Shown: positions 1,561 to 18,987, counted from the first letter of the stretch. The stretch is DNA of 64,000 nucleotides from Methanotrichaceae archaeon (GCA_963803145.1 CAWDLW010000012.1:171435-235434); one strand, 5' to 3'. Translations and numbers: made by a program. Notes: a model not told the origin generated them from the sequence alone.

Positions 1561-1805
1561 GCCAGAGGATGATAAAAAGTTATTAAGCAAGATCAAGATC
1601 CAAGAACAACCGAGATCCATAGGCTTTAATATAGCGCCTGAAGGACTGCAGCCATCAGCTTTATGGATACATAAGAGCTGGGCATAGGCTCCAGGGGGTA
1701 ACCTGTGTCCGGCAAAAGGCAGTGCCCTTTAACTATTTTATTGGCATAGCAATCTTAGAGAATTGCCTATTGATCAGCCTGAAGGCAGGATCGGTTTTTC
1801 ATCAT

Positions 1806-2192
1806 TTATTCTGCTTTGAAGAAACGCCAATCGTCAGTCTCCAAAGCTTCTCTAAGCTTCTGTTTTATCTCGTGAGGAAGCGGATAATTTCCGCTCTTGT
1901 CGCAGATCGCACTTATCAGATCTTCATGACTTACGCCCAAGAGATCATGATCTAGGGCGAATGAGGCCGTAACTTCATCGCGCTCTGCAGTTATGACCGT
2001 GATCATCAGTCTGGCTCTATCCTCCAGGCAGTTGATAAAAAAATAGGACATTCCACGAAGATCGGCTAGGTTACTACATAGTGATCTGTAGTCCTCAACG
2101 GATCTGACCTGAGTTAACCTAAATGCCTCAAGAAGTGGCAAATCGAACCTGATCTTTTTTGGATCGAAGATGACCTTTTCTCTAGGGGGCAT
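1806..2192 (-). CDS. Hypothetical protein
   Basis: 128-aa ATG-started ORF with globular composition; no recognised motif. Confidence 0.65.
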   Translation of the reverse strand: MPPREKVIFDPKKIRFDLPLLEAFRLTQVRSVEDYRSLCSNLADLRGMSYFFINCLEDRARLMITVITAERDEVTASFALDHDLLGVSHEDLISAICDKSGNYPLPHEIKQKLREALETDDWRFFKAE

Positions 2193-2383
2193 AAGATAAA
2201 TATCGTTCTCTAGCCGTATAAAAGTGCTAGTAAGCCTATGAGGATTATAATTTTGGCGTAGAGATAGACTATCTCGAAAAATTTATCTATATTCAATGCT
2301 AAAGGAACTATTATATTTCCGATCGAATTGCTTTCGTGTCATGAATTGAATATCGTTAAAGTTCAAACTCAGGGAGATGAATT

Positions 2384-3208
2384 ATGCTGCATGCCAGAGA
2401 CCTGAATGATGAGGGGGTTTCCCATTATAAACAGGGTGAATATGAGACGGCTATAGAATTCTTCGATAAGGCTCTGAAACTGGACCCAATGCTCGCGCCT
2501 GCTTGGAGCAATCGGGGATTGGCTTTATCAGAGCTCGGCAGGTATGAGGATGGGATAGAATCATTCGAAAAGGCCCTTAAAATCAAACCCGACTATATTC
2601 TGGCATTACAGGCAAAGGGAGTTGCACTCTGCAGAGCGGGCATGGATGTAGAAGCTATAAAGGCTTATGAAAGAGCATTGGAGATCGATCCTCAGTTCAC
2701 AGCCGCCTGGATAGGCAAGGGTGTTGCACTTTATCATCTGCGTAAGGACAATGAGGCTATCGAGTGTCTTGACAAGGCTACACAGCTTGACCCCCTTGAT
2801 ACAATTGCCTGGGTAAATCGGGGAAGGGTCCAACATGACCTGCATAGGTTTAATGAGGCCCTCAAATCCTATGAGAGAGCAATCGCGCTTGATCCCGATT
2901 ATGCGAAGGCATGGGAGAGCAAAGGTCTTTTGCTATACGACCAGGGGGACTACGATGGAGCACTTGAAGCATACGACAAGGCACTGGAGCTCGATCCATT
3001 ATTCAAAACAGCCTGGGAAGGAAAAGGGGTTGCGCTCTATGAGCTCGGAAGGTATGAAGAGGCATTAAAATGCTATGAGAGGGCTGGCGAGCTCAATCCA
3101 ACAGATCCTGCCATCTGGATAAAGAAGAGCCTTACGCTGCAAGCACTGGGTAGGAATGCAGAGGCTAATGATGCAATGGAGATGGCTAGGGGGATGGGAG
3201 CCGGATAA
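2384..3208 (+). CDS. Tetratricopeptide repeat protein
   Basis: Consecutive 34-aa repeats (AWxNRGxALxxLGRYEEAxxxFDKAxxLDP). Confidence 0.93.
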   Translation: MLHARDLNDEGVSHYKQGEYETAIEFFDKALKLDPMLAPAWSNRGLALSELGRYEDGIESFEKALKIKPDYILALQAKGVALCRAGMDVEAIKAYERALEIDPQFTAAWIGKGVALYHLRKDNEAIECLDKATQLDPLDTIAWVNRGRVQHDLHRFNEALKSYERAIALDPDYAKAWESKGLLLYDQGDYDGALEAYDKALELDPLFKTAWEGKGVALYELGRYEEALKCYERAGELNPTDPAIWIKKSLTLQALGRNAEANDAMEMARGMGAG

Positions 3209-3384
3209 CCTTCCTGCGAGGCTATCCAAATATATTCTTTAGAACTATCTTTTTGCTTTTGTATCTCCGTGGCTTGGTTTATCATTTTTAGTCAGGCAAA
3301 CCAAGAGCGTTTCACAAAGGCATAAATAGCATAAAATTGAGATTGGCAAAAAATATTAGTATCAAAAAATTATAACTCCTCTCT

Positions 3385-4722
3385 CTATCTCAGTTCTATC
3401 GTGCCAATCTCTTGCCTATCAGTCGTCAAGTTGGCGATCACTACTGAACTGTTTGTATTTCCGGCAGCATCCTTCGCCATTACCTTAACATTATCACCAT
3501 CTGCAATCCATGGAGCTGTGCTGTTCGCCAGGTAATCAGCGAAATCGCAATCTATGCTGAACCAGCCAGAGGAGCTTGGATCCGCGGTCTTCACAACGCC
3601 TGTTCTCTCGTTCGTTGCAGTGATAGTAACATTAGCAGGATCTGTAGCATTGACATTTCCGATTATCGGATGTAGCTTGTTTGTTGTGTATTCAGAGAAG
3701 CCCATTCGGTCAAAGCTGTAGCTTACGCCGTTCCTGGGCTTTAGAGATCCGTTGAACTGGGATACCTGCTCGAAGACAATATAGCTCGGCATAGGCGCTG
3801 GAAAATTCACTGGCAGAGGCACATTCTTGAGCACATTTATCATCAGCTCGAGCTTGTATTCGCCATTGTCGGCCTCGACTTTGTAGGCAGTGGGATACAT
3901 CCTCGACGTGATCTGATCTAGCGAGAAGTCTGCGTAGTTCAGCTTAACCTGAGAGCTTGAGAACTTGATTGTCTCTCCAGCGTGCTGTATTCCCAGAATG
4001 GTGTTTCTATCCTCGCCTAACACATCCCCTAGCGTCAGGCTGAAGCCATCTTTAGGATTCGATACCTGTGCCCAGTTCCACTTAGCATCATTGAATGCCC
4101 ACCTGCCCCAATTGTGATCATGATAGCCGACGGCGTCTATGCTTCTCGTCTGGTTGCCCAGGATTATGGTTCCTTTGACGGTTGCAGATGGCATATAGAC
4201 CAGCCATTTCATCCAGTCGCCCTTGAGGTGGCCTACATGCATCTGAACTGGTGTAGGGAACCAGGAGCTGACTGCGATAGTATATGTAAGATCCCATGCA
4301 ATAGGCGTATCTGACAGAGTATCTCTTGCAGAGCCGAATATCCTGTAGGCTGATGTATTCAGAGCACTGAAGCCGTTTTGATCGATATCGATTGTTGGAT
4401 TGCTGCGATCTCCTCCGAAGCCACGGCTGCTATGTATGCCCAAAAGAGGCGGCATGCCGTCTACAAGCACAAGTGCAATCGCCTGTATCCTCCGCTGACC
4501 GGTTAAATTATCAGGATCGCTCAGGAAGTAGTTAAAGAAGAACTGCGTATCGTTTGAAACTCCATTGAAGTACCACCATTCGTTATAGAGCTTATCATCA
4601 ATGTTGTTGGCCATGTAATGATAGGCATCATCCTTTAAGGTTGGTTCTGCAGCCAAGCCACTGCAGCACGAAAAGATGAATACTGTTAATGCTGCTAATA
4701 GATAATTTTTATAAGTTCTCAT
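3385..4722 (-). CDS. Secreted CrtC/AttH (tocopherol-cyclase/lipocalin-like) domain protein
   Basis: Signal peptide; NEWWYF and GYHDHNWG motifs typical of this beta-barrel family. Confidence 0.7.
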   Translation of the reverse strand: MRTYKNYLLAALTVFIFSCCSGLAAEPTLKDDAYHYMANNIDDKLYNEWWYFNGVSNDTQFFFNYFLSDPDNLTGQRRIQAIALVLVDGMPPLLGIHSSRGFGGDRSNPTIDIDQNGFSALNTSAYRIFGSARDTLSDTPIAWDLTYTIAVSSWFPTPVQMHVGHLKGDWMKWLVYMPSATVKGTIILGNQTRSIDAVGYHDHNWGRWAFNDAKWNWAQVSNPKDGFSLTLGDVLGEDRNTILGIQHAGETIKFSSSQVKLNYADFSLDQITSRMYPTAYKVEADNGEYKLELMINVLKNVPLPVNFPAPMPSYIVFEQVSQFNGSLKPRNGVSYSFDRMGFSEYTTNKLHPIIGNVNATDPANVTITATNERTGVVKTADPSSSGWFSIDCDFADYLANSTAPWIADGDNVKVMAKDAAGNTNSSVVIANLTTDRQEIGTIELR

Positions 4723-5348: not shown

Positions 5349-8144
5349 GTGAACACATTCAGTCGGCTCTATCCCTCAATTGGAAAGATGCTAGCGGAGC
5401 AATCGATCACAGAGCCGACGCTGCCGCAAAAGCTGGCGATTCCTGAGATCTTGGATGGCAGAAACATTCTTCTGATAGCTCCTACGGGCACCGGCAAGAC
5501 TGAAGCTGCAGCTCTTCCAGTTCTCCATAAAATCCTAGCGGAGGAGCGTTCTGGAACACAGGCTATCTATATCACGCCTCTGCGCGCCCTGAACAGGGAT
5601 ATGCTCAGACGTTTCGAAGAGTGGGGTGAGCGGCTGAACATATCAATCGCAGTTCGCCATGGAGATACAAGCAAAAGCGATAGAAGAAGACAGTCATTGA
5701 GTCCGCCTGATCTTTTGATCACTACCCCAGAAACTCTGCAGGTGATGCTCACTGGAAAGCGGCTGCGCAAAAATCTATCGAGCGTGAAGACAGTAATAGT
5801 CGATGAGATCCATGAGCTTGCATCATCAAAGAGAGGATCGCAGCTCTTTGTCCTTCTCGAGCGGCTGGTCGAGATCGCCGGCGAGTTCCAAAGGATCGGC
5901 CTGTCTGCTACTGTCGGATCGCCTGAGCAGGTTGCAAGGCTTCTTGCAGGCTCGCAAAGGCCATATAAAATCATCAGGGCAGATATCCAGAGGGCTAGCG
6001 ATTTTAAGATTGTCAGCCCTAACCCTACGCGAGCAGATTATGCTCTCGCAAGCCAGCTGGAATGCGATCCTAGGTTAGCTGCACAGATTGGTTGGATCAG
6101 GGAGCAGGTCAAACTAAAGAAGTGTCTTATTTTCGTCAACACAAGACAGGCGGCTGAAGTTCTGGGCTCCAGGTTCAGGCTGCTTGGAGAGCCGATAGGA
6201 GTTCATCACGGGAGCCTCTCAGCCGAGACCAGGGTCGAGGCGGAGGAGGCGTTCAAAGGAGGCGCTCTTCGCGGCCTTATCTGCACATCATCAATGGAGC
6301 TTGGAATCGACATCGGTGATGTCGATCATGTCATCCAGTACAGCTCTCCTCGTGAGGTCTCAAGGCTGCTACAGCGAGTAGGTCGTTCAGGCCATAAGAT
6401 AGGCCGAACGGCAGAAGGCACAATAATTGCCACATGCCCGGATGATATCGCCGAAGCATGTGCAATTGCAAGACGAGCTGGAGAGGCAATGCTCGAAGAG
6501 ATTCAGATTCACGAGAAGCCGATGGATGCTCTCGCAAATCAGATTGTAGGATTAGAGCTGGACTTCGGCGACATAAGCCTCCAGCAAGCTCATAGAATCA
6601 TAACCAGGGCTTATCCCTTCCGTGACCTAACGCTTGATGAGCTGAGGAAAGTAGCAGAGCAGATAGCCGAAAGCAGACTTACACGAATTCAGGGTGATAT
6701 CCTCCAGAGGACACGTAAGGCCCGCGAGTACTACTACGAGAACCTCTCGATGATTCCCGATGAGAAGAGATACAATGTCTACGACATCATCGGCCGCAAA
6801 TCGATAGGAACATTGGATGAGGCATTTGTAGTCAGCTATGCCCAGCCTGGTGCAACTTTTGTAACAAAGGGCGAGATCTGGGAGATCTCGGAGATCGACG
6901 AGGACGAGATCAAGGTCATGCCTATTCAGCGCAGCGGCGAAATTCCATCCTGGAGCGGTGAAGAAATACCTGTTCCATTCGATGTGGCACAGGAGGTAGG
7001 CAGGATAAGGGAAAGTGTCCGACTATATCTGGAATCCGATGGCAAGGATGCTGCTGTAAACTGGCTGACCGAAAGCTATCCTGTTGATCGTGAGGCTGCA
7101 GCAGAGTTTATCGATCTGATAGAGATGCAGATAAGGAAAAATCTGCCGGTCCCCGATGACAAACATATCGTTATTGAGGGAGGCGGCACCGAAGTTATCA
7201 TAAACTCATGCTTCGGCCACAAGACAAACGATACCCTGGGAAGGGCAATAACGGCTATGCTCTCTGCAAAGTTCGGATCAAGCGTTGCTTCAGAGATAGA
7301 TCCTTACAGGATAGAGCTGACATTGCCGCGTTCCGTGATCGCTGAGGAGATCGCAAAAACGATCATGGAGCTGAAACCCGAGCATCTGGAGCCGATCCTT
7401 GAGATGACCCTCAAGAATACCACTCTGCTCAAGTGGAAGATGGTTCATATCGCCAGGAAGTTCGGAGCTCTATCTAGGGATGTGGACTTCCAGAGAATTA
7501 GCATAAACAGGCTGCTCTCAGTATTCGAGGGAACGCCAATGTACCGTGAAGCAATACGGGAAATATACCAGGATCGGTTAGATCTCCCCCGTGCCAGGCA
7601 AATACTCGAAGAGATTCACAAAGGCAACATCGTTATTACCACCAGCAGCCCGAGTCCAATAGGTGCCAGCGGCAGGGGAGGCGGCAGAGATGTGACGTCG
7701 CCGGAGCATGCAGATGGCGCAGTAATAGAGCTTCTGAAATCAAGGATCATGAACGATTCCGTGATATTATTCTGCGTCAACTGCAAGAAGTGGAAGTCGC
7801 TCCGTGCAGTGGGCCGCGTTCCGGAGCAGCCTGAATGTCCCATCTGCGGCTCCAAGATGGTCGCAGCCCTCAAGCCCTGGGAAGAAGAGGAGATAAAGGT
7901 AGTCAAGAAGCCCGAAAAGAAGAAGACGCCAGAAGATCGTCGAAGGACAAAGCGGGTCTTCAGGAATGCCAATCTTGTCTTGAGCTATGGCAAAACTGCG
8001 GCAATTGCGCTTGCGAGCCGCGGACTTGGGCCCGAGACCGCGGCAAGAGTAATCGGCAAGCTTCGAACAGATGAGCTTGAGTTCTATCGGGATATCCTGA
8101 AGGCGGAGAGGGAGTATGCGAGGACGAAGAGGTTCTGGAGTTAA
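5349..8144 (+). CDS. lhr: Lhr-like SF2 DEAD/DEAH-box helicase with C-terminal Cys-rich (Zn-finger-like) motif
   Basis: APTGTGKT, TTPETL, VDEIHE, GLSAT, HHGSLS, SSMELGIDIG, QRVGRSGH motifs; CVNC...CPICG near the C-terminus. Confidence 0.92.
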   Translation: MNTFSRLYPSIGKMLAEQSITEPTLPQKLAIPEILDGRNILLIAPTGTGKTEAAALPVLHKILAEERSGTQAIYITPLRALNRDMLRRFEEWGERLNISIAVRHGDTSKSDRRRQSLSPPDLLITTPETLQVMLTGKRLRKNLSSVKTVIVDEIHELASSKRGSQLFVLLERLVEIAGEFQRIGLSATVGSPEQVARLLAGSQRPYKIIRADIQRASDFKIVSPNPTRADYALASQLECDPRLAAQIGWIREQVKLKKCLIFVNTRQAAEVLGSRFRLLGEPIGVHHGSLSAETRVEAEEAFKGGALRGLICTSSMELGIDIGDVDHVIQYSSPREVSRLLQRVGRSGHKIGRTAEGTIIATCPDDIAEACAIARRAGEAMLEEIQIHEKPMDALANQIVGLELDFGDISLQQAHRIITRAYPFRDLTLDELRKVAEQIAESRLTRIQGDILQRTRKAREYYYENLSMIPDEKRYNVYDIIGRKSIGTLDEAFVVSYAQPGATFVTKGEIWEISEIDEDEIKVMPIQRSGEIPSWSGEEIPVPFDVAQEVGRIRESVRLYLESDGKDAAVNWLTESYPVDREAAAEFIDLIEMQIRKNLPVPDDKHIVIEGGGTEVIINSCFGHKTNDTLGRAITAMLSAKFGSSVASEIDPYRIELTLPRSVIAEEIAKTIMELKPEHLEPILEMTLKNTTLLKWKMVHIARKFGALSRDVDFQRISINRLLSVFEGTPMYREAIREIYQDRLDLPRARQILEEIHKGNIVITTSSPSPIGASGRGGGRDVTSPEHADGAVIELLKSRIMNDSVILFCVNCKKWKSLRAVGRVPEQPECPICGSKMVAALKPWEEEEIKVVKKPEKKKTPEDRRRTKRVFRNANLVLSYGKTAAIALASRGLGPETAARVIGKLRTDELEFYRDILKAEREYARTKRFWS

Positions 8145-8620: not shown

Positions 8621-9257
8621 TGTGGATGGGATAAAGGGCATCCGTATACAACTTAGGGATGGATCAGCTAGCCAATTGTGATTTAATGCGGCGACGCCTC
8701 GCATGCCTCACTGTTTGCAGCGTGAGATAAAATACCGGTAAGAACCTTTTTCATCGAACTTGGAAGGATCACCTATAATTATATTATCCTTGCCATTCTG
8801 TTAGCTGTCGCTTTACATTTTCAAAGGTTGGGTCTTTGATCCTTTCGAAAATTTTAAGCGCAGACTGAGCATAGTCAACAGCCTTAGATTGTTCCCCTAT
8901 CTTATATAATACGAGGCTTATATTCCATAAGGCATTGCCCTCTCCAGCAGGGACTCCAATCTTACGGAAGATTTCTAATGATTGCTCATAGGATTCGATG
9001 GCCTGGCGAGATTCGCCTAGTCTCTCATAGGCCACACCAAGGTTGCCTAAAACGTTTGCCTTTCCTTTAAGATCTCCAATATTATTAGCAATTTCTAATC
9101 TCTTTTCATAATATTCAATTGCCTGGATAGGTTCGCCTAACGCACAGTATGCAATGCCTAAATTATTTAAATCTGCACATTCTCCTTTCAGATCTCTTAA
9201 TTCTCTGTCAATTATCAGAGCTTTCTTATAAAATTCAATAGCATATTGAAGCTTACC

Positions 9258-10395
9258 GAGGATTCCTATTTACTTGTATCCTAAGGGCGGTTTTTTTAAA
9301 TCGACTCTAGATTTGCCTTACGATGTTCGCTATTCTTGGTCTAACCTGTTTTTTTTCAGTTAATTCTCGATAGCATCCGCTATCCCTAAATGACATTTGC
9401 CTTTTTAAGAGTACAAAGCTGATACAAGTTAAAAGCGAAAGCGGTAACTATCATTTTCACATGCACTCTTCTGACTGATGTAACAAGCACTCTTCCAGCC
9501 TCGAAAACCCTCTTGATTACAGCATGGGGCCTTTCGCCAGGCGATCTGAGGATACTGATCAACTGATTGCGTTCTTTATCAAGATCAGAAAGAGGTTTAT
9601 CAGTAGTCCTGCGCTTCATTGTAAAATCAATACCTTTGGCCTTCACACCGAAATATCCTCTATCTCTGAAAACTGGCACGCCAGGGATAGAGAGATCAAC
9701 CTGACTGTCATGCAGTGATGCAGTCGAGGTCTCTATATCACGTATTAGGCTGTAATCGATATCAGTTATTTGATGTAACTTATATCCGAAGTGAGTTTCA
9801 TTGCCTTTCTTAGCCCATGTGCCATCCTTGCTGCGACGTGTCTTAGCCTCATCGCCACGTGGTTTCTTTGACTCCGATGATCCTGGATCTGCTTCTATAA
9901 AGGTAGCATCCTGAACAATTCCGCGTCTGATCTTCAATCCTTTTGCATCCAACTGTCTTTGAAGTTCAGCCCAAACAAGCCTATCTGTTCCTGTCTCCGC
10001 CATTCGTTCTTTGAATGACCATATAGTTCTGGAATCAGGGAACTGATCAGGAAAACCAAGAAATGCCATAAATGATATGCGATCAGCCATTTGCCGTTCA
10101 ACAGCCAGATCGCTCAGGCCATACCACTGCTGGAGAATCAGGATCCTGAACATTAGAATAACATCACAGTTGGGCCTTCCTCCCTTCTCGGTCTTATTAG
10201 TATACATCCCTTCCAGAAGAGGACGAAAGGGAACCCAATTGATCAATCCAGATACTTGAGCTAATTTAGACTCCTCTTGCTTTGCATTTAGACCTTTCAA
10301 TACCCAAGTAGTAAAAGAATCCATAACAATAAATACTATTTGCTGTATTTAACACTTTCGATGCTAAAGCAGGGGGTAGGTTTATAGGAATCCTC
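9258..10395 (-). mobile_element. IS5-family insertion sequence, 1138 bp
   Basis: 16-bp TIRs GAGGATTCCTATTTAC (9258-9273) and GTTTATAGGAATCCTC (10380-10395), 14/16 match; 4-bp TSD TACC at 9254-9257 and 10396-10399. Confidence 0.95.
9386..10324 (-). CDS. IS5-family DDE transposase
   Basis: GRP, LQQWYGLSD, QDATFI, FGYKLH, DRGY, RSPGERPH motifs. Confidence 0.95.
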   Translation of the reverse strand: MDSFTTWVLKGLNAKQEESKLAQVSGLINWVPFRPLLEGMYTNKTEKGGRPNCDVILMFRILILQQWYGLSDLAVERQMADRISFMAFLGFPDQFPDSRTIWSFKERMAETGTDRLVWAELQRQLDAKGLKIRRGIVQDATFIEADPGSSESKKPRGDEAKTRRSKDGTWAKKGNETHFGYKLHQITDIDYSLIRDIETSTASLHDSQVDLSIPGVPVFRDRGYFGVKAKGIDFTMKRRTTDKPLSDLDKERNQLISILRSPGERPHAVIKRVFEAGRVLVTSVRRVHVKMIVTAFAFNLYQLCTLKKANVI

Positions 10396-12416
10396 TACCT
10401 ATTGATAGATAAATAGTCCCTATATTCCCTAGAACTGTTTCTTCTCCGACAAGATCTTTAATTTCTTGGGAGATCTTAAGGCTTTTATTATAGAAATCTA
10501 ATGCAATATGAGGCTTACCTAGTTTTAAATATATATTACCTAGATCACATAATGCTGTATATTCTCCCTTGATATCCCTTAAATAACATGAAATTTCCAA
10601 TCGCTTTTCATGCATCTGAATACCCTGTTGAAATTTCCCAGTTTGCGAATAGATTCTGCCTAAAGAACTCAAAGCTTTGCTTGCCCCTCTTAAATCCCCT
10701 CTCCCTAAATGGATTTCTAAAGCCTTCCGATACGATTCATCAGCTTTTTTTAACTTCCCCAGATGCTGATAAACCCTACCGAGATTGCCACAGGCGTTGC
10801 CTTCGCCATACTTATCTCCAATTTTATGGGCTATATGAAGAAATCTCTTAAAAAGTTTAAGGGCATTATGGTAATCTCCAAAATGAATATTGGCGTTACC
10901 CATATTGCCTAGTACATAACACTCTAATTGGCGATTTCTAATCTTATGGGCGACAGCAAGTGCCTGATTATAATAATCAATAGCAAGATGCATATCTCCT
11001 AGATCAGCACAAGCTAAGCCTAACAGATTAAGGAAAGCTCCCTCGTTGTTGTAATCTCCAATAGCAAGCGCAGCCTGTAAGCCTGCTTTGGCTACCTTAA
11101 CTCTTTCTGTTGAATAGCCTTGTAAATCTAAGTAATTATCGAACATTAAGGTTATTTTACAGACAGCATCCCATTCACTAGCATCAAGGCAAGCAGATTG
11201 TAGCGCTAAAATATGAGCGCGATTAGTATCAATGATGATCTTACCTGGTAGACCCGGACCCCCTTGCTCCTTTAATAAGTTACAGTAATATTGAGCAAGG
11301 CGTAATAACATATCATGCTCCGTTACTAGATCTTTTCGTGCGTATGTATATGCTAATGTATGCGCTACGTGATAGAACGTATCAGGTCTTATTATCAAAC
11401 CGTAATCTACTAGCTCCCCCAAATGGCGATCAGCTTCATGTCTAGGTATATTTAAGGCTGTAGCGATGAGTTCTGGACCAAAAGGGCTCATTGCTAATAT
11501 GCCAGCCACCCTAAATGAGGCGCGTGATAACTCACTTAGCTGATCTAAGCTACGCTTCATTAATACAGGTATACTTTGATGCTGCCGCTCTCCTAGGTCT
11601 AGGGCTGCCAGAGGTGTGGCCTCAAGCCATGCAAGATAATCCTCGGCTTGTTGATGGCATTGAGACATATATTTTCCTGCTAGAACGATCGCAAGGGGTA
11701 AGCCCCCCAGGAATTCACAAATCCTATTAGCTGATACTTCATCGGCTGCATAATTATGCCCCCATGCACGTAATAGCTGGATAGCTTGGTCTTGTGGTAA
11801 AGGTGATAAATCACTCCAATCGGCAGGAGCATCTCTATGACGTCGACTAGTAATGATAATACCACAACTCACAGCAACCTCTAAGATTACATCCAAATTA
11901 TCGGCAGATTCAGCACCATCTAATATAAGAAGGGCTTTGCGACCTGCCAATGCACGGCGAGCAGTATCGATTGGGCTGGGTCGTGGATCTTCTCCAAATG
12001 CACGGGCTAATGCCTCTAAGGCAAGACTGGCCTGGGGTTGATGGTAAAATGTATGAAAAATCACTCCATCTGGAAATTGACTGGGGGGACTATTATCAGG
12101 GGCAAGGCGCCAAAGTATCTCAGATACAAGAGCAGTCTTGCCGATACCTCCTGGACCACATAATGTAACTGCATAACCAGGCTTTAATGAATCTAATAAG
12201 GTTGCAAGTTCCTTTTCACGGCCAACAAAATGGTGGGTTCGGGGCGGCTTCTGCAGAGGGATATGTAGTGAAAGAGACGGCGCGTTAATAATGACTGGCC
12301 CATGAAACTTTCCAGAAAGCACTGGGCCATCTGCATTTCCCCTTATGTTAGTCTGGGAACCATCTCCAGCTTTATCCTGTTGGCTCATGGTGGATTCCCT
12401 TTATTATCCGATATTT

Positions 12417-12854
12417 TCATTTGGATTCTCTTGCGTTAACTGAACCGTGGAAATTGCCTGAAAGCACAGGGCCATTTACATTACCAGCGATGTTTGTCTG
12501 TGAGCCATGGATTATTTGTCCACGCTGATCGAAAACACTGCTGGCTGTACCTTTCTCTTCAATTGCTTCAATTAACTTGCCTACTTCTTCAGCGAACTTC
12601 GTGTCCTTTTCCATTTTTTCAGCTAAGACATCCTTAAGTGCTGCCTGCCTATCTTCTGACTCAGGTTTCTCTTTTGCGCGAGCTAGCGTTTGCTCGGCGA
12701 ATGTGTCTCCTTTGAATTTATTCTCGACTGCCTGGCATAATTCCACAAACTTTTTGCCGAGTCCCTCGCCAGCAGTTTTGATAAATGAATCTCCTCCCTT
12801 GGCAAGATAGGGGGCTGCTGCAGCTGCGATTAATCCAACATCGACAGGTAACAT
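12417..12854 (-). CDS. Bell-like helical effector domain with C-terminal putative amyloid signalling motif
   Basis: ~100-aa helical domain with a hydrophobic N-terminal helix (AAAAAPYLAKGG...P.SEDRQAALKDVL...D.KFAEEV), then GSQTNIAGNVNGPVLSGNFHGSV, 18/23 identical to the N-terminus of the adjacent NLR. Confidence 0.8.
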   Translation of the reverse strand: MLPVDVGLIAAAAAPYLAKGGDSFIKTAGEGLGKKFVELCQAVENKFKGDTFAEQTLARAKEKPESEDRQAALKDVLAEKMEKDTKFAEEVGKLIEAIEEKGTASSVFDQRGQIIHGSQTNIAGNVNGPVLSGNFHGSVNARESK

Positions 12855-13007: not shown

Positions 13008-14326
13008 CTATTTATCACGCTTTTGTTTTTCAATAGGGCTGTCGAGCGTAACTTCATGAATGAAAGTTCCTGAAAGTACGTGTCCATGCACATCGCCGTA
13101 AATATTCGTTATGGCTTTTGCTCCTATGAACAAAGAGGTTAATAAGACCAGCTTTAAAGTTTCAAATCTCTGTTCTAATGTTGCTGTATCTTGAGATTCT
13201 AATAGAGCAAGGGTTTCAAGATACTCTTGTGCCTCCTTGGGAAATTTTTTGCAGTGAAGCTTCAGAAGTGGAACAATCTCCAGCAAATAACGATCTGCAG
13301 CTATTGGTGAGCTGATATCTTTCAACCCCTTAGTTGCATCGTAAGTAAGCTTTCCGAAATCTTCAAGAGCAGTTCCCTTAGAGCTTTTACAGAGCTTCCG
13401 TGCTGCATCCTCTACATCCTTAAATATAGTCTTGATTTTATCATCGATGATCGGGATTCCCCTTTCAACCATAGCAGCATCTACTACCTTGGAAGCAAAA
13501 GGTGCTCTGCCCCTTACCCTCTCCAAGCAATCCACTGCCTGGAAGCAATATCTAGTGTAGGCTTTGAGATCCTGTTTCCGAGATATCATATCTTCCACGG
13601 TATATGTCTTGACCTCCCAGAGAGCCTTAGATAGGTTATCCACAGCTTCAAGGAGGATCTCCTCCATACTCTCAGAGACTTTTACTGCCTCCTTAGCCTC
13701 TTAGCCTCAGCTAGATATCTCTGGATCTCCTCTGCCTTAGATACATCTCTAAACAAAAGACTGTGTAGTGATTTATAAAAGGGCAGACAAAAAACAGCAT
13801 GGTTCTCATTTCTCCAATTCCCCGGGCTATCCGAGGATTTTTGGAAGAATTCGATCGCTTCTTCTAGGTGAGCTTTGAGATCCCTATCATCGGCCTCAGT
13901 TGCCTTGAAGATGCATGCCCGACCTAAGGAATGATAGGAGATAGACCTGATGGCTTCATCCTTCTCCTTAGAGAGCCTATCTAATTCTCTCCAAACTAGA
14001 GACTTGTAAGGCAAGCTAGGGAATAACGATCCAAGCACGCAGCCTACTTCCCATCGTACATAGCGATTCCGGTCATTAGCTAATCTGTGAAGATCCTGCC
14101 ATACAAGATGATCGCTAGGCAAGTTAGGGAACGCCAACTCAATCGCGGCAACTGCATATTTTCGCACAAGAAAATGGTGATCCTGGGTTAGCCTATGTAG
14201 GTCTTGCCAGGCAGCTTCTTTGTCATCCAGATGGTCAAACTCGTTTCCGAGCAGTGTTGCAGCATGTTGCCTATGTTCTGTACTCTCAGAAATTGACATC
14301 TCATGGATCTCTGCGTAGGATACCAA
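13008..14326 (-). pseudogene. HEAT-repeat protein with C-terminal copy of the amyloid-like motif, split by an 8-bp duplication
   Basis: WQDLHRL..D...VR HEAT-like repeats in ORF 13682-14326. TTAGCCTC is duplicated at 13693-13708; removing one copy fuses it with ORF 13008-13667 (RYLAEAKEAVKVSESMEEILLEAVDNL, 436 aa). Ends ...TNIYGDVHGHVLSGTFIHEV... Confidence 0.85.
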
Positions 14327-16533: not shown

Positions 16534-18987
16534 ATGGATGACAGCATAATAATGAAAAAGTTGCTACATGAAGCTTTTAACAATAAAAAACAGTTAATCT
16601 CTTTCCGAAGCGCCCTAATACTTGGGGCCTGCATTATTCTTGGTAACATAGTGATAGTTGTCTCGCTAAGAGATAACCTAGCGCTTATCAGGACAGTTGG
16701 CGATTTTGTAGCTCCTCTAATAGAGCTTTTTTCGGTATTCTGTATGGCCTATGCAGCTAGCAATTTCAAAAAATCAGGAGAGCAGGTATGGCTCGCCTGG
16801 GTTATTCTCGCTGCTGCCCAGTTCTCTTATGCGATTGGAGATGTTGTATGGTCCATAATCGAATTAGGACAACATCGATTACCCTTCCCATCGCGAGCGG
16901 ATGGATTTTATCTGATGTTTTACCCTCTATTTGCTGCAGGTATTCTTCTTTTGCCCAAAAGACCCATGGCCTCAGGTGACAGGATTAAGGTACTATTGGA
17001 CACTGGCATCGTGATGATTGCCTCCATTTTGCTGTTTTGGGCATTCTTGATCGCTCCGGCCGTTAAGTCCTTTTCGGGGACAGATGCCTTTACTGTGATT
17101 CTTGCTGTGGGCTATCCCATAATGGATCTGCTGCTAATCTTTACGCTGATAGAGCTATTGCTCAGAAGGCTAAGTTACACAGAAATCAGCCCGTTGGCTC
17201 TATTAACAGCTAGCATAGTGATAATGATCATCACTGATATAATTTTCATGAACCAATCATTACAGAGGAAGTACATCTCAGGTGGCTTGTTGGACACGGG
17301 GTGGTATGCAAGCTTTTTATTGATGGGGCTTGCCGGCATACTTCAGGCAAATTCACAGCGATTCAATCTACCATCCCTATCTTTAGTACCTGAACCCAAG
17401 CCTAGATACGTCCAGTTTACGTGGCCTCTTTATTTTCCTTATATATTGGCGGGAGTTGCCTACATTCTTCTTATCTACAATTACAATCACCCGTTTCCCA
17501 TAGCATTTTCCACTATGGCTCTAAGTGTGGGCTGCATCGTTGGCCTTGTAATCATCCGTCAGATTGTTGCCTTAAAAGAAAACTCCAGGCTGTATGGGAT
17601 GACCCTAAAGGAGATTGCTGAACGCAATAAAAAAGAAGAAGAGATCAAGAGGCTCAACGAAGAGCTGGAAGTTCGGGTTATCGAGCGCACTGCAGAGCTC
17701 GACGATACAAACAAAAGGCTGCGAAATGAGATCCTTGAACGTGAAAAGACTGAAGAGGATCTGCATAAGGCCAAAGAAGCAGCGGAAGCTGCAATGACAG
17801 CTAAATCTGAGTTCCTCGCCATTATGAGCCATGAGATAAGGACCCCAATGAATGCAGTCATTGGAATGACCGGTTTCCTCCTGGATTCTAATCTCGATAA
17901 AGAGCAGCGTGAACACGTTGAGATTATAAGAAATAGCGGCAATGCTCTTCTCTCTGTAATAAATGATATTCTTGACTTCTCTAAAATCGAGAACGGTAAG
18001 ATGGTGCTGGAGAGCCAAGCATTTGATCTTAGAAGTTTTATTAAAGCCAGCATGGATTTGGTAGCTAACAATGCCGCCGAGAAAGGCCTGAAGCTGGTAT
18101 GTATAATAGAAGATTCTGTGCCTAGTGCAATCATAAGCGATCCGACTAGGCTACGTCAGATCTTGGTCAATCTGCTCAGCAACGCCGTCAAGTTTACTGA
18201 TAAAGGCGAGGTCGAGATATCCGTCACCTCCCAGACGATTAAGGATGGCAGATGCGAGCTTCACTTTGCTATCAGGGATACTGGGATTGGGATACCAAAG
18301 GATAGAATGGACAGGCTCTTCCAATCATTCAGCCAGATCGATATGACCACCACTCGGAAGTATGGTGGAACAGGTTTAGGACTGGCCATAAGCAAGCGCC
18401 TTGTCGAAATCATGGGCGGCAAGATCTGGGCGGAAAGCGAGTCGGGGATAGGATCTACATTTCACTTTATGCTTTCGGTTGATACGTCATTGGATCATTT
18501 CCCCAAGCCTGAAGAGGCTCCTTATCGATCAAAGGGCAATGTTCATGCTAACGCTAATGCTAATTTGCGCATCCTCCTTGTAGAGGATAATGTGATCAAT
18601 CGGAAGGTCATGTTGCATATGCTCAAGAAGCTGGGCTATAGAGCAGAGGTAGCTGCAGATGGCATGGAGGCTCTCAGGATTCTAAATCTCGAGCATTATG
18701 ACATTGTGCTTATGGATATACAGATGCCGGGGATGGATGGCATTGAGGCCACAAAGGAGATACGCAAACGTTGGCCCAATGGGCCGGTGGTCGTTGCTCT
18801 CACTGCCTATGCATTGGATGGTGACCGAGAGCGATGCATGGAGGCAGGCATGGATGGATACATTAGCAAGCCTGTGAAGATAGAGGAGCTGGAAGCTGTG
18901 CTGCTGAATTGCGAGGATAAAATAGCAGAACGATCGGGTTCCTACAAAAAGGAGAGCGAGATAACTGGGCTTGTCAATAACACCTAG
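16534..18987 (+). CDS. Membrane-bound hybrid sensor histidine kinase/response regulator
   Basis: Multi-TM N-terminus; [10 protein letters not shown]-box, [22 protein letters not shown]; C-terminal receiver (LLVEDN, LMDIQMP, YISKP). Confidence 0.95.

Follow-up and report, generated by a model that had tools for sequence, protein, structure and literature searches.

Bell domains and the amyloid signalling motif families BASS1-10 were defined by Dyrka et al. (2020; bioRxiv 10.1101/2020.01.06.895854). As described there, archaeal Bell domains are confined to Methanosarcinales; AEB69174.1 of Methanothrix soehngenii is placed in the Bell alignment and called a Bell domain, and two Methanosarcinales Bell/NLR pairs were recognized by pairwise alignment, having been missed by the BASS1-10 profile hidden Markov models (HMMs). 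A synthetic peptide of a receptor-side motif 'resembling BASS3', AEB69175.1(5-29), was later reported to aggregate in an amyloid-like manner by Fourier-transform infrared spectroscopy (FTIR) and Congo red (Dyrka et al., 2021; PMC8086366). The Bab/Agp pair (BASS11) of Escherichia coli ECOR25 has been reported as an abortive-infection system, and its Babybell domain was crystallised (Ibarlosa et al., 2024; bioRxiv 10.1101/2024.11.07.622273). Later work on archaeal pairs was not found beyond these three papers, and Table S2 of Dyrka et al. (2020) may list more; in an Aravind-group article (eLife 2021; PMC8195603) Bell/BASS is named in the reference list only. The present study concerns an operon in a Methanotrichaceae archaeon, found in a stretch of 64,000 nucleotides (GCA_963803145.1, CAWDLW010000012.1:171435-235434; hereafter the window), in which a Bell-like protein of 145 residues and an adjacent NB-ARC/TPR receptor share a motif. 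The locus is rather likely to be a BASS-type Bell/NLR operon of a methanogen, working through amyloid templating and membrane attack. As judged from sequence, it is orthologous in kind and motif family to the M. soehngenii pair AEB69174.1/AEB69175.1.

Four successive open reading frames (ORFs), all co-oriented on the minus strand, encode a HEAT-repeat protein, a 219-aa helical protein, the 145-aa protein and the receptor (Table 1). The motif is C-terminal in the 219-aa and 145-aa proteins and N-terminal in the receptor, and thus occurs in three consecutive genes, which are separated by 153 and 28 nt, respectively. The initial annotation of this DNA had described two of these copies, in the 145-aa protein and in the receptor, and a 28-bp spacing between the two genes. 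Its coordinates, its two 23-residue translations and its identity of 18/23 proved exact, and the spacing was found again; the copy in the 219-aa protein is an addition to that description.

Table 1. Features of the operon and its neighbours, with coordinates counted from the first nucleotide of the window.
Feature	Coordinates	Strand	Evidence or remarks
HEAT-repeat ORF, 214 aa	13682..14326	-	PF13646 HEAT_2, 30.1 bits vs cut-off 27.7
219-aa helical protein	13008..13667	-	ORF; last ~35 residues hold motif copy 3
Motif copy 3, TNIYGDVHGHVLSGTFIHEV	13050..13109	-	Motif HMM E 7e-5, whole-genome six-frame search
145-aa Bell-like protein	12417..12854	-	ORF, AF2 model and homologues
Motif copy 1, 23-mer, GSQTNIAGNVNGPVLSGNFHGSV	12438-12506	-	Residues 117-139 of the 145-aa protein; HMM E 5.8e-19
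Motif copy 1, full family length, FDQRGQIIHGSQTNIAGNVNGPVLSGNFHGSVN	12435..12533	-	
Receptor gene, 5' part	10396..12388	-	N-terminal motif, Pro-rich linker, NB-ARC, first TPR units
Motif copy 2, receptor side, GSQTNIRGNADGPVLSGKFHGPV	12293..12361	-	Residues 10-32 of the receptor; HMM E 2.3e-8
IS5-family insertion sequence, 1,138 bp	9258..10395	-	NF033581, inverted repeats, GGTA duplication
Transposase in the insertion sequence, 312 aa	9386-10324	-	
Receptor gene, 3' part	8784..9257	-	Remaining TPR units and stop; severed by the insertion sequence
83-aa ORF	8784-9035		TPR_12, 42.2 bits
Lhr-type DEAD/H helicase	5349-8144	+	DEAD_assoc, WH_Lhr
Hybrid histidine kinase	16534-18987	+	With receiver domain

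Copies 1 and 2 are identical at 18 of 23 residues and at 50 of 69 nucleotides, and 12 of the 18 identical residues are encoded by differing codons. Their likeness is therefore held at the protein level and does not reflect a fresh duplication of DNA. Copy 3 shares 12 of 20 residues with the Bell copy and 11 of 20 with the receptor copy. When the 23-mer was slid without gaps along every stop-to-stop frame (six frames, minimum 25 aa) of the 4.13-Mb genome, the background reached 9/23 at most (nine cases), and all matches of 11/23 or more fell in the motif sites of two loci. A whole-genome search with a motif HMM led to the same two places. The model was built from 112 homologue tails, leaving out the 145-aa protein of this locus, and gave six matches at E<1e-3 among 92,689 frames (next best E 0.36), three at this locus and three at a paralogous locus on contig C34.

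The conserved motif of the family extends over about 33 residues, FDQRGQxVHGxQTNIAGNVxGPVLSGTFSGPVN, beginning with FDQRGQ..HG upstream of QTNI, and is longer than the 23-mer. Q (3.4x), N (2.4x), G (2.2x), and T and V (1.9x) are over-represented in it, and L (0.14x), K (0.21x) and E (0.23x) under-represented, a bias that largely matches the one reported for BASS motifs and that bears out the description of a G/N/Q-rich motif linking both proteins. The motif is bipartite. Many receptors share the first half only (FDQxxQxVxGxQ[TI]N[IV]AGD), followed by a Pro-rich linker, and the receptor at this locus shares mainly the second half (QTNI...PVLSGxFHGxV), its first half being degenerate. Among the tails of the 112 homologues, the long form QTNIAGNVxGPVLSGTFSGPVN was counted 53 times, QTNIGEANAPVFSGTFSGPVN 28 times and the short form QTNIGNVxGSVNIG 30 times; receptors beside short-form Bell genes share FDQKxQSVxxQTNI only. 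The short form ends in VNIG, the RHIM/BASS3 core being (I/V)-Q-(I/V)-G. Pfam scans of this locus's proteins listed no RHIM, HET-s or Ses_B family and showed no sequence relation to HET-S/NWD2 or RHIM. Both partners here carry H in SGxFHG, a residue found in 0 of the 77 homologue tails having that half, and this S-to-H change stands out as a pair-specific signal common to the two proteins.

Order-wide, a Bell-like homologue was found in 39 of 105 genomes (this assembly, G000, included), corresponding to 18 of the 64 high-quality genomes and 8 of the 16 genera. Twenty-nine loci from other genomes (L004-L032) were analysed, all of them having a Bell-like N-domain by search design. The motif was present on the Bell-like gene in 27 of these (absent from L030 and L032, and in a shifted frame in L031), and in 18 the next ORF downstream carried the motif near its N-terminus. 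Similarity to the NB-ARC region of the present receptor was detected by blastp in 15 of those 18 downstream ORFs, which is a lower bound, the receptor on C34 having been missed by the same blastp yet reaching 40.9 bits with Pfam NB-ARC. In L024 the Bell domain, motif and NB-ARC are encoded in one frame, with an NB-ARC 58% identical to that of this receptor, and in L006, L019 and L025 the Bell-motif part is fused to other extensions. Loss of the paired positions in homologous loci had been named beforehand as a finding that would speak against the proposed pair; the pairing is conserved, the motif starting the downstream ORF in these 18 loci, to which one fusion can be added. Across 20 pairs, partners share a mean of 13.8 of 35 anchored positions compared with 8.7 for non-partners (n=380), and for 9 of the 20 receptors no foreign Bell tail scores above that of its own partner.

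A different arrangement was observed in L002 (CAIQHB010000050.1), a longer copy of L005, where two NB-ARC/TPR genes lie downstream of the Bell-like gene. The first overlaps the end of the Bell gene and has no motif match; the second, 2 kb downstream, bears the motif and is 55% identical to the NB-ARC of the present receptor.

The AlphaFold2 (AF2) model of the 145-aa protein (62 sequences, pLDDT 72.7) has helices at residues 6-27, 30-47, 51-62, 67-83 and 85-103. Helix 1 is hydrophobic (LIAAAAAPYLAKGG), and the motif-bearing tail (residues ~103-145; pLDDT below 50) is unstructured in the monomer model. This five-helix arrangement agrees with the published account of Bell and Babybell, in which four helices cup a hydrophobic helix 1. 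The initial annotation had called for a structural check against Bell, HeLo and the four-helix bundle (4HB) of MLKL. The helical domain it expected is indeed predicted; the Bell/4HB fold was not confirmed by the fold searches considered below.

Homologues of the 145-aa protein numbered 164 at E<=1e-3 among 261 candidates, and the few that are named come from Methanothrix sp., Methanothrix soehngenii or Methanotrichaceae archaeon. In a search of 1.84 billion cluster representatives, the family profile had 1,138 matches at E<=1e-3, of which 219 reached E<=1e-10; these are mostly proteins of ~130-150 aa that align over the N-domain, and the nearest clusters in the ESM Atlas (score 0.95) are ~130-156-aa proteins of Cyanobacteriota and Chloroflexota. 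The consensus of the family's N-terminus is MDPxSLAAxAAPF. Ten distant homologues of ~140 aa were inspected and have the same N-domain with other G/N/Q/V/I-rich tails, some of them RHIM-like (VQIG, YQIG); one N-domain combined with many tail motifs is a hallmark described for Bell/BASS. No PADLOC or NCBIfam family was assigned to the 145-aa protein, and weak precomputed matches to PF20701 occur on some homologues. A PDB sequence search with the family profile returned a sole match, repeated along a cytochrome c555 trimer (i-Evalue about 4.5 per stretch), which was rejected as spurious. The genome contains mcrA and hence belongs to a methanogen; together with the named homologues, the AF2 model and Pfam, this upholds the earlier view of a methanogen of the Methanothrix family that encodes a small all-helical protein and an NB-ARC/TPR receptor. 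Methanothrix is filamentous.

The receptor was assigned to NB-ARC (PF00931, 31.1 bits against 23.5), with a visible Walker A sequence GPGGIGKT, and to TPR_12 (103.9 bits). Ahead of NB-ARC there is the motif and a Pro-rich linker only, and Pfam recognized no other N-terminal domain, in agreement with the annotation of a receptor lacking an effector domain of its own. The gene is broken at 10395/10396 by an IS5-family insertion sequence (IS). As it stands, the 5' ORF encodes 668 aa and ends three codons inside the IS, and the TPR tail resumes at 9257 and runs to 8784. In-silico excision of the IS with one GGTA restored a single open frame of 820 aa with its stop at 8784, which explains the outer coordinate given in the initial annotation; removal of 0, 3 or 5 bases instead led to early stops. 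The transposase matches NF033581 (IS5 family, 201 bits against 140) and the Pfam families DUF772 and DDE_Tnp_1, and the element has the ends of an IS5-family member, with terminal inverted repeats of 16 bp that match at 14 positions and a duplication of the 4-bp target GGTA.

Thirteen copies of the IS were counted in the genome, seven of them 100% identical, the copy in the receptor being among these. The insertion is considered recent because the element is identical to six other genomic copies, and the IS5-family element is evidently active in this genome. With its receptor split by a recent insertion, the system is probably off in this genome. In four DNA sequencing runs the coverage was essentially that of the IS only (9258-10395), one run adding two 151-nt contigs inside the locus; with coverage so restricted, no contig bridging either IS junction or an IS-free joint was present in the four runs. 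The IS5 element is also the only part of the locus present in several sediment and soil metagenome runs.

The third motif carrier is of a different kind. The AF2 model of the 219-aa protein is helical (pLDDT 62.6), and no Pfam, NCBIfam or PADLOC family was assigned to the protein. Only two homologues were found among 5.8 billion proteins, 55-58% identical over the first ~180 aa, and both end in a long coiled-coil/hydrophobic tail in place of the motif. Since they share the ~180 residues but not the motif, the motif seems to have been grafted onto a different helical domain. A fold search with the 219-aa model gave a best Z of 9.3 (the helical core of adenylosuccinate lyase), within helical-bundle noise, and the best ESM Atlas score of 0.76 offered no lead. 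The protein is a candidate for a second partner or effector of the receptor.

The paralogous locus (L001, contig C34:4800-9200 of the same assembly) is a second, intact system. It comprises a Bell-like gene (about 801-1226, 141 aa), a middle ORF (1237-1656, 139 aa) and a 644-aa NB-ARC/TPR receptor (1709-3643) with the motif at residues ~7-40. The middle ORF starts with the half motif FDQRDQIIDGPQINIA, followed by a domain belonging to no Pfam family that recurs behind the Bell-motif part in homologue P0055 (252 aa). Other homologues are Bell-motif fusions to CHAT (P0158 and P0176), to a PNP_UDP phosphorylase (P0159), to NB-ARC (P0172) and to HATPase_c_4-NB-ARC-TPR (P0168). The all-in-one forms, namely L024 (G061:C223), P0168 and P0172, have the Bell domain, a single motif copy and NB-ARC in one frame, and look like split pairs that became fused when their two motif copies recombined. 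In P0158, P0159, P0188, P0245, P0264 and P0299 the motif is followed by another conserved stretch, ...DFRGSxGAIYKPSGxVSQHFGD..., which precedes CHAT, PNP_UDP or other domains. The C-terminal half of P0299, itself a STAND-type NTPase by sub-threshold nSTAND1/AAA_22 matches, contains two copies of the motif.

In fungal HET-S/NWD2 (HRAM) and in mammalian RIPK1/RIPK3 (RHIM), a receptor-borne motif templates an effector-borne motif, and the same logic could apply here; HET-S itself has two pseudo-repeats of 21 residues. By analogy with STAND/NLR biology, the TPR array would sense a cue and the NB-ARC/TPR receptor would oligomerise. The clustered N-terminal motifs may then form a cross-beta nucleus, as the amyloid-like aggregation of the relative's receptor-side peptide suggests (Dyrka et al., 2021). 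The nucleus would template the motif on the C-terminal tail of the 145-aa protein, and probably that of the 219-aa protein too. By analogy with HET-S and Bab, the hydrophobic helix 1, once freed from the helical bundle, might damage the membrane, and regulated cell death or abortive infection would be the outcome. A complex prediction with two Bell tails and two receptor N-termini scored 0.10, which gives no answer and is evidence neither way.

Several observations weigh against this interpretation or limit it. A Bell domain is taken to be helical and ~100 aa long, to begin with a hydrophobic helix and to be acidic at position 2 or 3; the 145-aa protein starts MLPVD and not with the MDPxS of its family, its acidic residue being at position 5. 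Foldseek against PDB gave 0 matches to the model at E<=0.001, and in the wide VIA-align search (best Z 5.1) Bell, HeLo, MLKL and CC domains were not singled out, the CC region of the ZAR1 resistosome (6j5t_G; Z 5.0, root-mean-square deviation 3.2, 76 aligned) being tied with unrelated helical proteins. PF20701 HetE-N (25-bit gathering cut-off) did not match the 145-aa protein at E<=10, nor anything in the genome search, and it appeared in 3 of the 10 distant homologues at sub-threshold scores of 13.9-17.4 bits. Eleven of the 29 foreign loci have no separate downstream ORF with the motif, four of these being fusions and several lying at contig edges, and in L011 nothing was found behind the Bell-like gene. 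When the pairs were permuted, 0 of 10,000 permutations reached the observed sum of shared positions, a significance that is overstated by the kinship of the genomes. The tested peptide corresponds for the most part to the motif's first half (FDQRGQ...QINVAGD), not the half mainly shared by the receptor here; amyloid templating and membrane attack at this locus are suggested by analogy, the amyloid data being those of a relative's peptide. The disrupted receptor also means that the system at this locus is probably switched off or decaying.

These points leave room for other explanations. One is that the motif serves as a homotypic, non-amyloid docking tag, for example a short beta-hairpin or strand-augmentation adaptor, which would recruit one effector to one receptor with no prion-like templating, in the manner of the adaptor domains, effector-associated or Death-like, found in other prokaryotic STAND systems. 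The occurrence of the motif internally, between Bell and CHAT, PNP_UDP or NB-ARC, would suit an element with a general role in oligomerisation or as a linker, the motif half in common varies from pair to pair, and the aggregation experiment was carried out with a relative's sequence. This is nevertheless unlikely, given that the receptor-side peptide of the same family aggregated with a cross-beta FTIR signature and bound Congo red (Dyrka et al., 2021), that the composition and length of the motif match those of validated BASS/FASS motifs, and that the motif region is unstructured in the monomer model. That the similarity arose by chance, from low-complexity sequence or through a functionless recent duplication of DNA could be entertained for a short motif of biased composition; this explanation can be considered refuted, with practically no probability left to it, by the background maximum of 9/23 against the observed 18/23, by the six HMM matches confined to two loci of the same architecture, by the codon differences and by the conserved pairing in other genomes.

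A further possibility, that the locus is a decaying relic whose receptor has been inactivated by the IS and whose small genes persist since the event is recent, concerns its present state and not the identity of the system. The TPR array is interrupted by the IS, whose 4-bp duplication is intact and whose sequence is perfectly identical to its six sister copies; about 155 residues of sensor repeats are missing from the C-terminus of the truncated ORF, and IS knock-outs of a costly suicide system are plausible. On the other hand, a truncated product of 668 aa could still be made and would retain the motif, NB-ARC and several TPR units, the three motif-bearing ORFs upstream are all intact, and an intact paralogous system is kept on C34. 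The two sides appear evenly balanced. With regard to what the system is, a BASS-type Bell/NLR operon with amyloid templating and membrane attack remains the explanation that is favoured here.

A broader and more tentative proposal, which we would regard as possible rather than probable, is that an archaeal immune-type network uses the motif as an address tag that is modular and bipartite, and not simply as the label of a pair. One receptor would be wired to two candidate executioners, the Bell-like protein and the ~180-aa helical domain belonging to no known family. The half of the tag in use (FDQRGQ..QTNI or QTNI..PVLSGxFxGxV) would vary between pairs, substitutions of the S-to-H type would tune the choice of effector, and recombination would yield all-in-one proteins such as L024, P0168 and P0172. 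The tag family is widespread in Methanotrichaceae and is joined to typical immune effector domains (CHAT, PNP_UDP and NB-ARC). Experimental handles are provided by the tag-bearing, uncharacterised second effector candidate, by the natural half-motif variants, and by a single genome in which a natural IS knock-out coexists with an intact paralogue.

The HEAT-repeat ORF, which has a weak PADLOC match to HEAT_CxxC_PD-DEXK (E 9e-4), is separated from the 219-aa gene by 14 nt and may be in the same transcription unit; its membership in the system is uncertain. A PADLOC scan of six ORFs recognized no defence genes flanking the operon (for the neighbours see Table 1). The assembly, at 4.13 Mb, is larger than all relatives listed (1.4-3.3 Mb) and has a contamination score of 6.77%. 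Some of its contigs may come from another organism, yet both motif loci have Methanothrix-type homologues.

Comparison with published systems shows that the motif family is not new, as the initial annotation had thought it might be. Residues 5-29 of the receptor in locus L009 are identical to AEB69175.1(5-29), and the gene directly upstream of that receptor encodes a protein 53% identical to the 145-aa protein, with nearly the same tail (ending ...QTNIAGNVNRPVLSGNFSGPVN). The family of the present motif is therefore one that had been recognized before and tested in part, in that one receptor-side peptide from M. soehngenii aggregated in an amyloid-like way (Dyrka et al., 2021). The M. soehngenii pair AEB69174.1/AEB69175.1 has the same motif family, the same architecture and an NB-ARC receptor. 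The two loci differ in that the M. soehngenii receptor shares the first motif half with its partner, followed by a Pro-rich linker, whereas the present receptor shares the second, and in that the locus here has an extra 219-aa motif carrier and an IS-disrupted receptor. The works cited already contain the concept, its occurrence in archaea and an amyloid test of the same motif family, and no new class of system is described here.

The BASS1-10 pairs of Actinobacteria and Cyanobacteria, as described by Dyrka et al. (2020), likewise consist of a ~100-aa helical Bell-type domain with a G/N/Q-rich C-terminal motif of ~25-35 aa, and this motif recurs N-terminally in the NB-ARC/TPR protein encoded by a collinear neighbouring gene, the intergenic distance being short; the host here is an archaeon instead. 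Of the features of a Bell/NLR pair, this locus shows the motif at both termini, collinear genes 28 nt apart, NB-ARC with TPR, and a conserved pairing. Bab/Agp, as reported by Ibarlosa et al. (2024), is similar in that its small helical executioner, whose helix 1 is hydrophobic and whose C-terminus bears an amyloid motif, is encoded next to a TPR sensor with an N-terminal motif, and the family consensus MDPxS is reminiscent of the 'MEPIS' region of Bab, Bell and Hell. It is distinguished by Agp being TPR-GreA/B-C-PIN and not an NB-ARC NTPase, by a Babybell of ~80 aa and by a different motif family. Beyond what the sources cited here report are the second motif carrier, belonging to no family, the half-motif usage, the pair-specific H, the IS disruption, and the breadth of the family in Methanotrichaceae with its CHAT and PNP_UDP fusions. 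With a well-documented example from the Archaea, this operon extends the evidence that all three domains of life possess NLR-type receptors with amyloid-like signalling tags.

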